Virus record (IMG/VR): IMGVR_UViG_3300032323_003835
Span: 1 to 64,000 of that record
Direction: 5' to 3' (one strand)
Length of the DNA: 64,000 bases
Source of the DNA: a virus
Under the pieces are notes generated by a model. It was not told where the DNA came from. It was given only the letters and a program-made list of their open reading frames with translations, and made no database searches. The first letter of the stretch is position 1, and each line of letters begins with the position of its first letter. The translations under genes and the position numbers were made by a program. Below, piece by piece: positions 17,875-24,472 of this stretch.

Positions 17875-17997
17875 ATGTACTTAAAAAATCTAATAGACTC
17901 CATTAAAAAATTCTTCGAAAAAAGAAGAAAAAAGAAAGAATTCGAGAGAAAAATAGAGGAACTGAAAAAGAGAGACCCGTTCACTTATAACCATTAA
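17875..17997 (+). CDS. small basic protein (40 aa, ...KIEELKKRDPFTYNH)
   Basis: Read manually; sits downstream of a promoter-like region and directly before cysC. Confidence 0.7.
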   Translation: MYLKNLIDSIKKFFEKRRKKKEFERKIEELKKRDPFTYNH

Positions 17998-18006
17998 TTT
18001 AAGTAT

Positions 18007-18435
18007 ATGATCTATTTATTTATAGGACAACCTGGTGCTGGTAAAACCGAAATGGCAGGAAGATTGGTAGAAAAATTAGGAGAAAGTACTATATGGATAG
18101 ACGGAGACGATTTAAGAGAGATCTTCCCTAATACGGATTATTCCTATTCCGGGAGAATCAGAAACATTGAAAAATCGTTCACTATAGCTCGCTTTATGAG
18201 TAAAAAAGGATATAACGTAGTGATAAGTATGGTTTGTCCTTATCGTGCAATTAGGGAGGATTTAAAAGCAAATAACGAGGTGGTAGAAATACTATTTGAT
18301 CGTCCGCATTTTGCAGGAAAAGACAAGCTACATGTTCAATCATTCGAAAGGCCTAACGAGAACTATCGCGTCTTTATTAACGGGGATGAAGTGGAAAAAT
18401 CCTTCGGGGAACTTCTGTCCATAATTGGACTATAA
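18007..18435 (+). CDS. cysC: adenylyl-sulfate (APS) kinase
   Basis: GQPGAGKT P-loop, IDGDDLR, DYSYSGRIRN, VCPY..R, FERP. Confidence 0.85.
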   Translation: MIYLFIGQPGAGKTEMAGRLVEKLGESTIWIDGDDLREIFPNTDYSYSGRIRNIEKSFTIARFMSKKGYNVVISMVCPYRAIREDLKANNEVVEILFDRPHFAGKDKLHVQSFERPNENYRVFINGDEVEKSFGELLSIIGL

Positions 18436-18440
18436 TTTCT

Positions 18441-18818
18441 ATGAAAAAATATGCATTATACATCGGTAGATGGCAAAATTGGCACAAAGGCCACCAATGG
18501 TTAATAGACCAACAATTCGATCAGGGTAAAAATGTTTGGGTAGCAATTAGGGATGTTCCCAAGGATGAGAATAATCCAAAGTCTGCCCAAGAGGTTTTTG
18601 AAGAATTAAAAATAGCATTAAGCGATTATCTTCAAACTGGCAGATTGCTAATTTCTGTGATCCCAGACATAGAAAGCGTTAATTATGGTAGGGGAGTAGG
18701 ATATGATGTGATCTACCACGAACCCCCTGTAGATGTTGCAATAATCAGCGGAACTGCTATCAGAAATGGACACATGCTAGCTGATGGATCTATATTTCAT
18801 GAAGAAAGTAAAGACTAG
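18441..18818 (+). CDS. HxGH nucleotidyltransferase (minimal ATP-sulfurylase/cytidylyltransferase-like)
   Basis: GRWQNWHKGH, YGRGVGY, ISGTAIR. Confidence 0.75.
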   Translation: MKKYALYIGRWQNWHKGHQWLIDQQFDQGKNVWVAIRDVPKDENNPKSAQEVFEELKIALSDYLQTGRLLISVIPDIESVNYGRGVGYDVIYHEPPVDVAIISGTAIRNGHMLADGSIFHEESKD

Positions 18819-18836
18819 ACATAAAATCACAATAAA

Positions 18837-19055
18837 ATGGCTGTAGAAAGAAAAAGACACATAGCTAAAACTATATCATACAGAATTGTTAGTACACTAA
18901 TTGGATTTTTATTAATGTGGCTAATAAGTGGCTCTGTGAAAGTGGGTGCAGCATTTGGTGTTGCAGAATTGGTTTATAAACCAATCCAATACTATATCCA
19001 TGAGAGAATTTGGTACAGATATATAAAATACGGATTGAAAAATAGGGATTTATAA
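18837..19055 (+). CDS. DUF2061-like small membrane protein
   Basis: RHIAKTISYR...YYIHERIW. Confidence 0.8.
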   Translation: MAVERKRHIAKTISYRIVSTLIGFLLMWLISGSVKVGAAFGVAELVYKPIQYYIHERIWYRYIKYGLKNRDL

Positions 19056-19074
19056 ATAAATATACAAAAAGAGC

Positions 19075-21841: not shown

Positions 21842-21842
21842 C

Positions 21843-22160
21843 ATGAAAATAAATTTTAAAGAAATAGTAACCTCTTGGTACAATGTTATACATCACACTC
21901 CCGAGCAACAAGAGTTGGCTGAAAAAAGATTTAACGTGTGCTTAGAGTGCCCCTCTAAAAAAGAGATATTTGAAGGTAAAGAATGGTCTTTTAAATGCGG
22001 CGAATGCGGATGCCCATTAAAAGCAAAGATTTATACAGAATCAACATATCTTATTAGAGCCGGATCCTGCCCACTTGGTAAATGGAAGGAAGTTGAAATG
22101 GAATATCTCGATAAACACCGCGACACTGTTAGATATAAAACCAAAAAAACAATTCTTTAA
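21843..22160 (+). CDS. Cys-rich metal-binding protein (DUF6171-like)
   Basis: RFNVCLECP, CGECGCPLKAK, CPLGKW; ends KKTIL. Confidence 0.7.
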   Translation: MKINFKEIVTSWYNVIHHTPEQQELAEKRFNVCLECPSKKEIFEGKEWSFKCGECGCPLKAKIYTESTYLIRAGSCPLGKWKEVEMEYLDKHRDTVRYKTKKTIL

Positions 22161-22301
22161 TAATTTTTTCAAAAAAGAAATCAACTAATTTGATGCCATT
22201 TATTTGGACATTCAGTACTCTTTTACTGCAGGTGTCTGGTGTACAGAAACACTAGTAATATAAAAAATTATACACTAAGTCCTCATTAATTTAAATTAAC
22301 A

Positions 22302-23033
22302 ATGCTAGTTAACAAAAAATTTATTTTCATAAGTTTACCAAGATGTGCATCAACCTCATTTATGATTACGTGTCTCAAAAACAAGATATCTATAGAGCAC
22401 TTTAACTCGAACCATGATAATCAGTTGATTATGATAAATGACTGGGAAAAAATGGATAATGAAGAATTGGCAGATAGATTAACACATGCTCATGAGCCAT
22501 TGTATATATTACAAGAAAAATTTGGAAATAAGAACCAGATTATATCAATAAGAAGAAATAAATATGATAGATTTTTATCCTTATGGAAACATATTATAGA
22601 CGAATTGGACAGAACAAAAAAAAATGATATCGCTAATATTTTTTCAAAATTAACAGTTAATGATATATTCGATGGAATTGTTCCAAATGATATTTATAAT
22701 AAAGAAAGCAGGTATAAATATATTGACAATTTTTTAGATAAGATTAAGATCTCAAAAGATGAATCTTACACTAAAAACATGTTAGATATATTGTTCACCC
22801 CCATAATTGAACTTACAAGCGATGATCCAAATATTATTTGGTTTGATATCAATAATTTGAAAGAGCTAGAAAATTGGGTATCAAAAAAATTAAATATTGA
22901 TTTTAAAATGGAAAAAATAAATTCAAGTAAACATTTTAATTCCGCAATAGAAATTGATGACAATTTTAAACAGAAGTATGATGATCTCTATAGAGAATTT
23001 GAACAAAGAAAAATTAATAAAACATTATTATAA
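22302..23033 (+). CDS. sulfotransferase (Sulfotransfer_2-like)
   Basis: FISLPRCASTS PAPS loop, RNKYDRFLSLW, INSS; ends NKTLL. Confidence 0.75.
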   Translation: MLVNKKFIFISLPRCASTSFMITCLKNKISIEHFNSNHDNQLIMINDWEKMDNEELADRLTHAHEPLYILQEKFGNKNQIISIRRNKYDRFLSLWKHIIDELDRTKKNDIANIFSKLTVNDIFDGIVPNDIYNKESRYKYIDNFLDKIKISKDESYTKNMLDILFTPIIELTSDDPNIIWFDINNLKELENWVSKKLNIDFKMEKINSSKHFNSAIEIDDNFKQKYDDLYREFEQRKINKTLL

Positions 23034-23132
23034 ATAATGTTTGTTTTACGTATTATCCATCATGGTTACCAAACAATGTGGAATTAAGTGAAATCACATT
23101 AAAAGAATTTTTAGAGAAAAATATTGATTTTT

Positions 23133-23699
23133 ATGAAAATACTTCTTCTGTGCGAACCTAGGAGCGGATCCACTAATTTAGCAAATTGGTTTATTTGTAA
23201 TAAAGATTTCACAGTCTTACAGGAGCCTTTAAACAAAAATGGATTAGATTACAAAAAAGGAATATCCCCTAGAGAATGGGAATATACCACGGATCATTTT
23301 CTAATTAAAGAAATATATGTACCTAACGCCAATCTGGTGGACCTTATTAATCTAGCGGATAAAATAATTTTACTATATAGGGAAAAAGTCGAAGAACAAA
23401 TCGAATCATGGTTGGTTGCTTCTCAAACAAATCAGTGGTCTTCTGAATGGGCAAGTGGTCGTATTGTAATAACGCGAGAAGATGATAAAATTAATTATTT
23501 TAGATCCCTAAAGAGTGGATTTAAAAACGATTACCTGGATAACCAAGATTTTTTTAGCATCTCGTACGAGGAGCTATACAATGGTAACGGTATTGAAAAA
23601 GTTATTGATTACCTAAATATAGATACACTAGAAAATAAAAATTTTCCATACGGTAAAAAATATAAACTAGAACCAATTAAACCGACAAGATTGATATGA
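23133..23699 (+). CDS. sulfotransferase (Stf0-like)
   Basis: EPRSGST, QEP, LYRE..EQIES, SYEELY; ATG start chosen at 23133; ends PTRLI. Confidence 0.75.
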   Translation: MKILLLCEPRSGSTNLANWFICNKDFTVLQEPLNKNGLDYKKGISPREWEYTTDHFLIKEIYVPNANLVDLINLADKIILLYREKVEEQIESWLVASQTNQWSSEWASGRIVITREDDKINYFRSLKSGFKNDYLDNQDFFSISYEELYNGNGIEKVIDYLNIDTLENKNFPYGKKYKLEPIKPTRLI

Positions 23700-24472
23700 A
23701 ATCGCTAAAATACTGGACTCAAGACGGGTTTGAAATATCATCGTATAGACATAATTTATCAGAAAGAATCAACCAGTCATATAATGGTTCGGGATCAGAT
23801 AATACTGATAGATGTACTTATACCTATAATTCATTGGGATTCAGAGGAGATGAACCAACAAAAGAAGGATTTAAAATAATGTCAATTGGTTGTTCGATAA
23901 CTGAGGGAATTGGATTGAATGATAATGAAACTTGGTCACACCAATTTACCGAATTAATACCTAATGGCGTTGATTTAAATTTTGGAACCAGTGGTAGAAG
24001 TAACGATTATATAGCGAGAGCATTATTGTCGTATTATGATGTAATTAAGCCAGATCTAGTTTTAATTATGTACACTGAAACCCACCGCAGAGAATTTTAC
24101 ACGAAAGATGGCGGGATTGAACCATTTCACCATAAGGATTGGGGTTACTTCAAAGAAACGAGCGATGGTATCCTCGAACACAAAGCTCATCTAACGTTAC
24201 TGAATAAGAATAACAATTTCATTAATTGGTACAAAAATCACACATTAATAAAATTGTTTTTAGAATCTAAAAATTGTAATTGGATATGGAATGGCTGGTT
24301 TGCAACTAATGAATATTCCGACGAAAACAGATTTGATGGGGATTACTTTCCTTTTAAAGATCTCGGTGTTGATGGAAGCCATCCGGGTCCAATACACAAT
24401 AAAGAATATGCACTCAGATTACATAATTACATATCTGAGCATTTTCCAGAATATCTTCCTCAACTAAAATAA
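23696..24472 (+). CDS. SGNH-like hydrolase/acyltransferase
   Basis: YNSLGFRG, GCSITEGIG, NFGTSG, DGSHPG. Confidence 0.7.
   Translation: MKSLKYWTQDGFEISSYRHNLSERINQSYNGSGSDNTDRCTYTYNSLGFRGDEPTKEGFKIMSIGCSITEGIGLNDNETWSHQFTELIPNGVDLNFGTSGRSNDYIARALLSYYDVIKPDLVLIMYTETHRREFYTKDGGIEPFHHKDWGYFKETSDGILEHKAHLTLLNKNNNFINWYKNHTLIKLFLESKNCNWIWNGWFATNEYSDENRFDGDYFPFKDLGVDGSHPGPIHNKEYALRLHNYISEHFPEYLPQLK

Follow-up and report, generated by a model that had tools for sequence, protein, structure and literature searches.

The window analysed here comprises the first 64 kb (64,000 nucleotides) of a linear viral contig of 111,205 bp (IMG/VR record IMGVR_UViG_3300032323_003835), a contig that CheckV places at ~33% of a phage; the GC content is ~34%. 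On the plus strand, between positions 17875 and 24472, 12 open reading frames (ORFs) form one close-packed run (Table 1), with intergenic gaps of 1-27 bp except for 141 bp before 22302 and ~99 bp before 23133, and with the start of 23696 overlapping the upstream gene by 4 bp. The run is bordered by a divergent radical-SAM gene on one side and by a convergent IscA-type gene on the other. A first-pass annotation had described here a single run encoding an adenosine 5'-phosphosulfate (APS) kinase, an HxGH nucleotidyltransferase (hereafter NT), a DUF2061 protein, an ATP-grasp-Hint fusion, a 29-aa peptide, two 2-oxoglutarate (2OG)-Fe(II) oxygenases, a Cys-rich protein, two sulfotransferases and an SGNH protein, and all of these genes are indeed present on the same strand. 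We consider it on balance probable that the run is a self-contained sulfation module, which would combine supply of the sulfotransferase donor 3'-phosphoadenosine 5'-phosphosulfate (PAPS), its use and the preparation of the substrate.

Table 1. Genes of the plus-strand run and three further genes of the window discussed with it (AF2, AlphaFold2)
Feature	Position	Strand	Support or remark
40-aa basic ORF	17875..17997	+	head of run; 58-71% identity, directly upstream of kinase in L003-L006, L017/L018
Trimmed APS-kinase-like P-loop kinase, 142 aa	18007..18435	+	Pfam APS_kinase 2.3e-10
HxGH/ISGT nucleotidyltransferase (NT), 125 aa, candidate ATP sulfurylase	18441..18818	+	HKGH, ISGTAIR
DUF2061 small membrane protein	18837..19055	+	Pfam 1e-16
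ATP-grasp-like + BIL/Hint + hypervariable Cys-rich tail, 500 aa	19075..20577	+	AF2 model, Foldseek
29-aa Thr/Ile-rich ORF	20605..20694	+	kept in four loci
oxy176, 2OG-Fe(II)-oxygenase-like, C-terminal tag KKTKSLL	20717..21247	+	phrog_2954 7e-21; HxD...H...R
oxy193, 2OG-Fe(II) oxygenase, prolyl-hydroxylase-type family, tag YKKTLL	21260..21841	+	Pfam 2OG-FeII_Oxy_3 1e-13; phrog_61 3e-30
Cys-rich 105-aa protein (CxxC...CxxCxC), tag TKKTIL	21843..22160	+	phrog_13558
ST243, sulfotransferase, Sulfotransfer_2/heparan-2-O type, tag INKTLL	22302..23033	+	Pfam 0.0034; phrog_3347 5e-4
ST191, sulfotransferase, Stf0/NodH-like, tag KPTRLI	23133..23699	+	PRSGST loop; R..Q..S motif; Atlas
SGNH/GDSL-type protein	23696..24472	+	SGNH blocks; NCBIfam GDSL 0.0013
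Radical SAM + SPASM enzyme, divergent, tag NTKSLI	16543..17769	-	Pfam Radical_SAM 6e-10, SPASM 1e-4; syntenic in L003/L004
301-aa protein, no Pfam match, tag KVKSLI	10569..11474	-	tag scan
IscA/HesB-type Fe-S carrier, convergent with run	24473..24805	-	Pfam Fe-S_biosyn 8e-17; near module also in L021

The best solved relatives of the kinase are all APS kinases (PDB 7yq0 at 8e-9), and its Pfam APS_kinase score of 41.1 bits stands above the cut-off of 21.1; a match to NCBIfam PRK05541 (2e-15) falls below the cut-off of that model. A Walker A P-loop (GQPGAGKT) occupies residues 7-14, and the IDGDDLR, Y-S, GR and N elements align with LDGDNxR, F-S, DR and N of canonical CysC and 7yq0, while (S/C)PY..R also finds its counterpart in canonical CysC. 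The aromatic-Ser, Arg and Asn positions are presumably those that contact APS in APS kinases. In human PAPSS1 (hPAPSS1), HNGH is reported to be essential, and its kinase to require the P-loop and DGDN (PMC11697783).

Next to the kinase, the NT belongs to a family of proteins of 112-135 aa in which HKGH (residues 15-18) and ISGTAIR (102-108) are invariant across the alignment, the individual invariant positions being G9, R10, H15, H18, R37, G83, R84, G87, Y88, S103, T105 and R108, four of them arginines (R10, R37, R84, R108). Sat-type ATP sulfurylases belong to the same HxGH superfamily, and since the HxGH and ISGT motifs are common to the whole superfamily they are not diagnostic of Sat. There is no Pfam match for the NT, ATP-sulfurylase (PF01747) included, and a profile of 26 NT sequences matched no ATP sulfurylase among PDB sequences. 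The nearest NCBIfam models describe archaeal nicotinamide mononucleotide adenylyltransferase (NMNAT) and are far from their cut-offs (PRK01153, 27 vs 127 bits; TIGR01527, 21.8 vs 181). The profile alignment with NMNATs spans residues ~1-82 (10-82 for the PDB entries) plus the ISGT end; with 125 aa, as against 168-181 aa, the NT is 40-55 aa shorter and is without the NMNAT portion beyond the core. The AF2 model has a predicted local distance difference test (pLDDT) value of 84.6, and its fold, as compared with Foldseek, is not of the CysD/CysN type. The closest kin by both sequence and fold are the archaeal/NadM NMNATs (1f9a, 1ej2, 2qjo; PRK01153, TIGR01527), which share with the NT the GR(F/W)QPxHxGH start, the NP(F)xA motif and the (I)SGTxIR end. 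They differ from it in having GSAQ where the NT has an invariant (I/V)RD, and the invariant GRxVGY loop is the NT's own. Where Sat has QTRNPxHRxH and GRDHAG, the NT has GRWQNWHKGH and GRGVGY. Judged by sequence and predicted fold, the NT is by descent NMNAT-like and not Sat-like, and the missing NMNAT portion would suit a small anionic second substrate.

This kinship could be taken to mean that kinase and NT are a split NadR-like pair, that is, a nicotinamide riboside kinase and an NMN adenylyltransferase that would rebuild NAD+ in the course of infection and have nothing to do with the sulfotransferases. Besides the closest solved and curated relatives being NMNATs, one NT homologue is named NMNAT by JGI, and in Xylella-type phages kinase-NT fusions lie amid early/DNA-metabolism genes. 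Domain fusions point elsewhere. In a tally of the top 150 NT-family members among 1.84 billion cluster representatives, 58 are long (at least 230 aa), and Pfam APS_kinase is found in 49 of these 58, Nudix or AAA_28 (the NadR kinase domain) in none. In P0094-P0097 the NT is joined, in one order or the other, to an APS kinase that is fully canonical; in P0090, P0091 and the Xylella phage 'kinase' genes its partner is the trimmed kinase. The latter type of fusion, annotated as 'kinase', is located among early genes in cultured Xylella, Xanthomonas, Stenotrophomonas and Clavibacter phages (for instance L001 5578-6324, which is gp32 of Xylella phage Salvo, and L002 4590-5321). Fusion of kinase and NT is restricted to some lineages. 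We also considered that the two ORFs might be one broken gene, phrog_10255 spanning both, and rejected this reading, as they are separate ORFs in most phage and SAR86 loci, often overlapping by 4 bp. Unlike NMNAT, which is accompanied by Nudix or nicotinamide riboside kinase, the NT has APS kinase, DUF2061 and sulfotransferases as fusion partners and neighbours.

The DUF2061 protein (61.5 bits against a Pfam PF09834 cut-off of 23.1) provides a further connection to sulfate activation. Of 79 viral loci, 68 have a DUF2061 gene beside the NT; in bacteria, ~35 of 78 loci have one as the immediate upstream neighbour of cysC (gene order cysQ-DUF2061-cysC-cysD-cysN in Lutimonas), and in P0085/P0086 DUF2061 is fused to canonical CysC. 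Since DUF2061 adjoins cysC-cysD-cysN elsewhere, the kinase-NT pair appears to take the place of cysC-cysDN. In Flavobacteriia (L033 7782-10988; ~35 other loci, L034-L109) a tandem-DUF2061 gene is found between a cysQ-like gene and cysC-cysD-cysN, and in the SAR86 genome G015 DUF2061 also adjoins CysNC. The conserved link between DUF2061 and sulfate activation is unreported: a full-text literature search turned up nothing published on what DUF2061 does, on an ATP sulfurylase of NMNAT-like type or on the sulfotransferases of SAR86.

The cellular counterpart of this arrangement is found in the SAR86 order of ocean bacteria, of which we sampled 121 genomes from apparently about four clades. The NT is present in 54 of these, with the short kinase just upstream (~400 bp) in 52 of the 54. 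Sat is present in a single genome, and strong PAPS_reduct matches (CysD/CysH type) are confined to three, all of them NT-negative and two of them with canonical CysNC. Since several of the genomes with the NT consist essentially of one contig (1.2-1.6 Mb), the missing Sat/CysD is not just a gap in assembly. Published SAR86 genomes have been described as being without sulfate uptake and without assimilatory sulfate reduction (PMC3358033). Sulfotransfer_1 genes occur in 61 of the 121 genomes and largely in the same ones as the NT (both, 51; NT only, 3; Sulfotransfer_1 only, 10; neither, 57). A sulfotransferase ORF of 364-399 aa lies directly upstream of kinase-NT in at least 14 species, one of them (G016) being Pfam-confirmed as Sulfotransfer_3 (1e-39). 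The genome G001 presents the order 2OG oxygenase-kinase-NT-DUF2061-CysQ beside a Sulfotransfer_1 gene and a flippase. The full cysQ/DUF2061 context is found in G001 only, and the idea that the SAR86 pair always sits within a sulfation cluster was discarded; so was DUF2061 as an obligate partner, which is present in only 23 of the 121 genomes and adjoins PAPS genes in three.

The SAR86 genomes also bear on the NAD+ reading. NadD is found in 59 of the 121, distributed without regard to the NT (both, 25; NT only, 29; NadD only, 34; neither, 33), so the two are independent, with no complementarity; the NT is therefore not the replacement NMNAT of these cells. Together with a kinase whose best matches are all APS kinases and which keeps the APS-contact positions, with fusion partners that are canonical CysC and never Nudix or AAA_28, with an NT devoid of the C-terminal part of NMNATs and with its tight linkage to DUF2061, CysQ and sulfotransferases, this makes a NadR-like pair very improbable.

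Among viruses, the grouping of these genes is recurrent. Searching IMG/VR with the kinase and with ST191 as seeds returned two different contig sets, and tblastn with all cluster proteins recovered the same gene set, in changed order, in most of the seeded contigs: kinase, NT, DUF2061, ATP-grasp/Hint, Cys-rich protein, both sulfotransferases, SGNH and 2OG oxygenases (loci L003-L030). The grouping is not a matter of chance: more than 25 viral contigs have the same genes together, in shuffled order. A sulfotransferase lies within 10 kb of the kinase in all 10 kinase-seeded viral loci. An NT-profile scan of IMG/VR yielded at least 562 viral stretches, of which 41 loci of at least 15 kb were tallied: near the NT are DUF2061 (36 of 41), an APS-kinase-type gene (26), a sulfotransferase (at least 27, a lower bound that comes from purpose-built hidden Markov models), a 2OG oxygenase (23) and an ATP-grasp/Hint gene (22), the last accompanied in most loci by the Cys-rich protein gene. 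An 831-aa protein without family match is encoded at 14019-16514 (-) of the window, and three loci that lack the ATP-grasp/Hint gene (L021, L022 and L024) have paralogue-like copies of it on the flanks of the sulfotransferase; on that account it may be an alternative module partner. In cultured phages, blastn of the whole cluster found no match.

A second phage lineage (L007-L012, ~750-17400) has the trimmed kinase amid collagen-like (GXY)n tail-fibre genes, followed by Sulfotransfer_3 (1e-16), two 2OG oxygenases and GT2 or other glycosyltransferases, and with no NT within 10 kb of the kinase. This layout hints at hydroxylated, glycosylated or sulfated fibres. A collagen-like substrate was also considered for the run of the window and set aside, (GXY)n repeats being absent from this contig.

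Metagenome surveys often list cysC-type genes as viral auxiliary metabolic genes for sulfur; none of the surveys found in the literature search dealt with this cassette. Under such a classical explanation the phage cysC would lift assimilatory sulfate reduction of the host for cysteine and methionine, and the sulfotransferases would be coincidental. The 111-kb contig carries none of cysH/cysD (PF01507), sat (PF01747) and cysQ, nor were cysN or sulfite reductase found, and the lack of cysH, cysD and sat argues against a role in sulfur assimilation, although absences are weak evidence on a contig that represents only ~33% of the phage. The gene accompanies sulfotransferases in several phage lineages and in SAR86, whose genomes are reported to be without assimilatory sulfate reduction (PMC3358033). 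We regard this explanation as extremely improbable. The first-pass annotation had itself preferred PAPS supply for modification over assimilation, and had named co-occurrence of cysC and sulfotransferases across phages as an observation on which this would turn; the co-occurrence is found (10 of 10 kinase loci, at least 27 of 41 NT loci), and this part of the annotation is well supported. It is highly probable that the PAPS would be made for the phage's own sulfotransferases.

Whether the NT is the enzyme that makes APS is less straightforward, and several observations weigh against that reading and the module built on it. The 26-sequence NT profile matches archaeal NMNATs at 2e-11 to 3e-8; Foldseek places the NT model closest to the NMNATs 1m8g/1ej2, with Thermus ATP sulfurylase 1v47 ranking 47th; and hhalign of the NT against 12 Sat catalytic domains reaches 47% probability over the ISGT..R end only, on which basis we rejected the NT as a Sat homologue. 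The kinase stays under the NCBIfam cut-offs (57 vs 127 and 42.7 vs 138.7 bits), and throughout the phage/SAR86 kinase family the lid RDxKGLYKKARxGEIxxFTG is replaced by a loop ~15-20 aa shorter; because of the deletion of these 15-20 lid residues, the kinase is, by its sequence, APS-kinase-like and not a standard member. As to distribution, about half of the phage loci with an NT show no kinase nearby, many SAR86 genomes have the pair among unrelated genes, and, with only about four clades sampled, the SAR86 counts amount to few independent events. Finally, tblastn of ST243 and ST191 against the cultured-phage collection found no homologue, and no sulfotransferase is annotated within the flanks, of up to 6 kb in two records, of the kinase-NT fusions of Xylella and Stenotrophomonas phages.

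In the most serious competing scenario the kinase is a genuine APS kinase and raises PAPS for the phage sulfotransferases, with APS coming from the host CysDN, and the NT has some other task. It might, for instance, turn a phosphate ester such as a sugar phosphate or glycerol phosphate into an activated adenylyl or cytidylyl donor that goes into the same glycan. The NT does belong to a cytidylyl/adenylyltransferase superfamily without specific Sat kinship, the likely hosts (Flavobacteriia) have cysDN beside DUF2061-cysC, NT-DUF2061 occurs without a nearby kinase in many phage loci, and glycan genes are close by. What this scenario leaves unexplained are the APS kinase fusions, in both orders, in a third of the top representatives, and the SAR86 genomes with sulfotransferases and kinase-NT that have no recognisable ATP sulfurylase; moreover, a protein of 125 aa has little room for a large second-substrate pocket. 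We therefore hold it to be unlikely.

Considering fusions, neighbourhoods and phyletic patterns, we see a somewhat better than even chance that the NT is an ATP sulfurylase. The minimal ATP sulfurylase proposed by the first-pass annotation thus fits these three lines of evidence, while the NT is NMNAT-derived and without specific Sat kinship. Chemically the proposal is reasonable, given the HxGH superfamily common to Sat and the NT and the need for HNGH in human PAPSS1. In its fullest form, to which we give a chance only just above even, the proposal is that the NT would constitute a third class of ATP sulfurylase, derived from NMNAT, unrelated to CysD and related to Sat only via the superfamily; with the lid-less kinase it would form a ~270-aa 'mini PAPS synthase' used by many aquatic phages to sulfate products of their own and by about half of the sampled SAR86-order genomes, which had been regarded as incapable of sulfate activation although several sulfotransferases are encoded in them; DUF2061 would be its dedicated membrane partner.

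From the gene content, folds and co-occurrence observed we infer the following sequence of steps. The NT (18441) would move AMP from ATP onto sulfate, giving APS, and the trimmed kinase (18007) would phosphorylate the 3'-OH of APS, giving PAPS. DUF2061 (18837) would serve as a membrane accessory of this supply, perhaps in sulfate entry or anchoring. ST243 (22302) and ST191 (23133) would spend the PAPS, and the 2OG oxygenases, the SGNH protein, the Cys-rich protein and the radical-SAM/SPASM enzyme would act on the same product. That product would be either a glycan made by the adjacent glycosyltransferases/epimerases or a peptide or protein tied to the ATP-grasp/Hint protein, whose Cys-rich tail would release itself.

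Both sulfotransferases look like carbohydrate-type enzymes in their motifs and structural matches. Both lie below the Pfam cut-offs (17.3 vs 22; 15.9 vs 27). ST243 gives weak Sulfotransfer_1/2 signals; its profile matches heparan 2-O-sulfotransferase (4ndz/3f5f) at 0.011, the LPRCASTS PAPS loop, HxH and RR..K......S aligning with that enzyme, and its feature neighbours in the ESM Atlas are Sulfotransfer_2/NKWYS. For ST191, EPRSGST and R..(E)Q..S are invariant in the alignment of homologues, and the ESM Atlas model matches viral Sulfotransfer_3/Stf0/NodH clusters (TM 0.78-0.79); its profile found no match among PDB sequences. The start at ATG 23133 is more likely than 23124; the Atlas record begins at that ATG.

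Of the two oxygenases, oxy193 is secure (Pfam 2OG-FeII_Oxy_3, 52.6 bits against a cut-off of 27), whereas oxy176 has no Pfam match and is assigned from its PHROG match (7e-21) and an HxD...H...R motif read by eye. The AF2 model of the 500-aa protein (pLDDT 75) resembles ATP-grasp enzymes of the glutathione-synthetase/YjfC type in its N half (Foldseek 7uk6/3kak, ~3e-5) and BIL/intein Hint domains in its C half (6y75 at 6e-7; also 4o1s, 2lwy and 1at0). H459 and N460 are invariant and are followed by a hypervariable Cys-rich tail. The start of the Hint domain aligns to K-L-L-D-T-D, and the homologue alignment has no conserved Cys or Ser nucleophile there; for lack of this N-terminal nucleophile the protein would undergo C-terminal cleavage at most, not splicing. 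The 29-aa ORF directly follows the ATP-grasp/Hint gene in L025, L026, L028 and L030, being 59-76% conserved. The SGNH protein retains S67, G100, N103(D) and D226..H229, with blocks I, II, III and V present; its NCBIfam GDSL match (0.0013) is below cut-off.

A feature that unites part of these proteins is their C-terminal ending, K/N-x-(K/T/S)-(T/S)-L-(L/I) or the variant KTIL, found on seven proteins encoded within 10569-23699 of the window: oxy176, oxy193, the Cys-rich protein, ST243, ST191, the radical-SAM/SPASM protein and the 301-aa protein. Of the contig's 188 ORFs with 80 aa or more, only seven match the pattern, six of them inside 10.5-23.7 kb (the KTIL of the Cys-rich protein falls outside the regular expression). 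The ending is kept in homologues (L013-L030), including SGNH homologues elsewhere, and is absent from the kinase, the NT, DUF2061, the ATP-grasp/Hint protein and this copy of SGNH. The shared tag supports the notion that the hydroxylases and sulfotransferases act as one set, and by the same token the unit, as delimited by this ending, extends past 17875-24472 to the divergent radical-SAM/SPASM gene. The tag probably docks the tailoring enzymes on one partner.

As to what is sulfated, the neighbourhood offers two candidates. Besides the SGNH protein and a methyltransferase, the region 2.5-24.8 kb encodes three glycosyltransferases (one GT2-like, two GT7-type) and a pair of epimerases, of which one carries a fused 2OG oxygenase, and the proximity of glycosyltransferases and epimerases to carbohydrate-type sulfotransferases speaks for a glycan. 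The glycan-building genes occupy 2540-10576 (+) and 11467-14022 (-) and include two further radical-SAM proteins; the GT7-type proteins are animal beta-4-galactosyltransferase-like, one with a Laminin_G_3 domain, and in the epimerase fusion the oxygenase forms the C-terminal end. For a peptide or protein acceptor speak the prolyl-hydroxylase-type oxygenases, the radical-SAM/SPASM and IscA genes at the flanks and the HN followed by a variable Cys-rich tail, which Asn cyclisation, to judge from motif and model, could release from the Hint protein. We speculate that the two readings could be reconciled if hydroxylation were followed by glycosylation and the sugar were then sulfated. That the hydroxyls made by the oxygenases are themselves the sulfated sites, as was suggested at first, seems to us doubtful.

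The peptide reading brings to mind clusters for ribosomally synthesised and post-translationally modified peptides (RiPPs) and BIL domains (6y75, 2lwy), which resemble the present case in a Hint/BIL fold that ends in HN before a hypervariable Cys-rich peptide and in the co-encoded radical-SAM/SPASM enzymes, hydroxylases and other tailoring enzymes. Here, in contrast, an N-terminal Cys is missing from the Hint domain, the 'leader' would be a 460-aa ATP-grasp/Hint enzyme, the tailoring enzymes have a common C-terminal tag, and the tail is only a putative substrate.

Regarding expression signals, the sequence TAATATAAAAA occurs only twice in the window, both times on the plus strand (17860-17870 and 22256-22266) and at places expected of a promoter, upstream of 17875 and of 22302. 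Statistically the count is weak (0.67 expected; at least two copies in 14 of 100 shuffles), and a promoter and terminator scan of the run gave no informative signal. At the start of the window ARAGORN calls a tmRNA gene (41-423, -) with a tag peptide of 24 residues.

Genes for PAPS supply are known to lie beside a sulfotransferase in Sinorhizobium (NodP/NodQ and NodH, Nod factor) and in Xanthomonas (RaxP/RaxQ and RaxST, RaxX), systems which use a CysD/CysN-type ATP sulfurylase and a full-length APS kinase. Like these, the run would co-encode a private sulfate activation with the sulfotransferase that spends the PAPS, apart from cysteine synthesis, and the structural neighbours of ST191 include NodH-named clusters. 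It differs from them in its 125-aa NMNAT-like first enzyme, the lid-less kinase, the addition of DUF2061 and the phage carrier. PAPS synthases and Sat-CysC fusions (PAPSS1 1x6v; 2gks; 3cr8; CysN/CysC) likewise have an APS kinase joined or coupled to an HxGH-type adenylyl-transferring domain, a fusion logic that the NT family repeats in both orders, but the NT has no PUA-like or extra domains and counts ~125 aa as compared with ~210 aa for the Sat catalytic domain alone. By analogy, the run is best seen as a variant of the known theme of a private PAPS supply plus sulfotransferase.

Should the NT make APS, it would represent an unrecognised and very small enzyme solution for sulfate activation, and genome-based claims that an organism or a virus cannot activate sulfate, such as those for SAR86 (PMC3358033), would need revisiting. 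In enzymatic sulfation, a 125-aa ATP sulfurylase and a 142-aa APS kinase would also be useful as a compact means of regenerating PAPS. The C-terminal tag that the tailoring enzymes share, for its part, suggests a mode of assembly for a modification machine that has not been described before. APS formation by the NT would further show that large phages, while infecting, have a full sulfation chemistry of their own for glycans or peptides, with consequences for how host surfaces are remodelled and virions decorated and for what becomes of sulfated organic matter in lakes and oceans.

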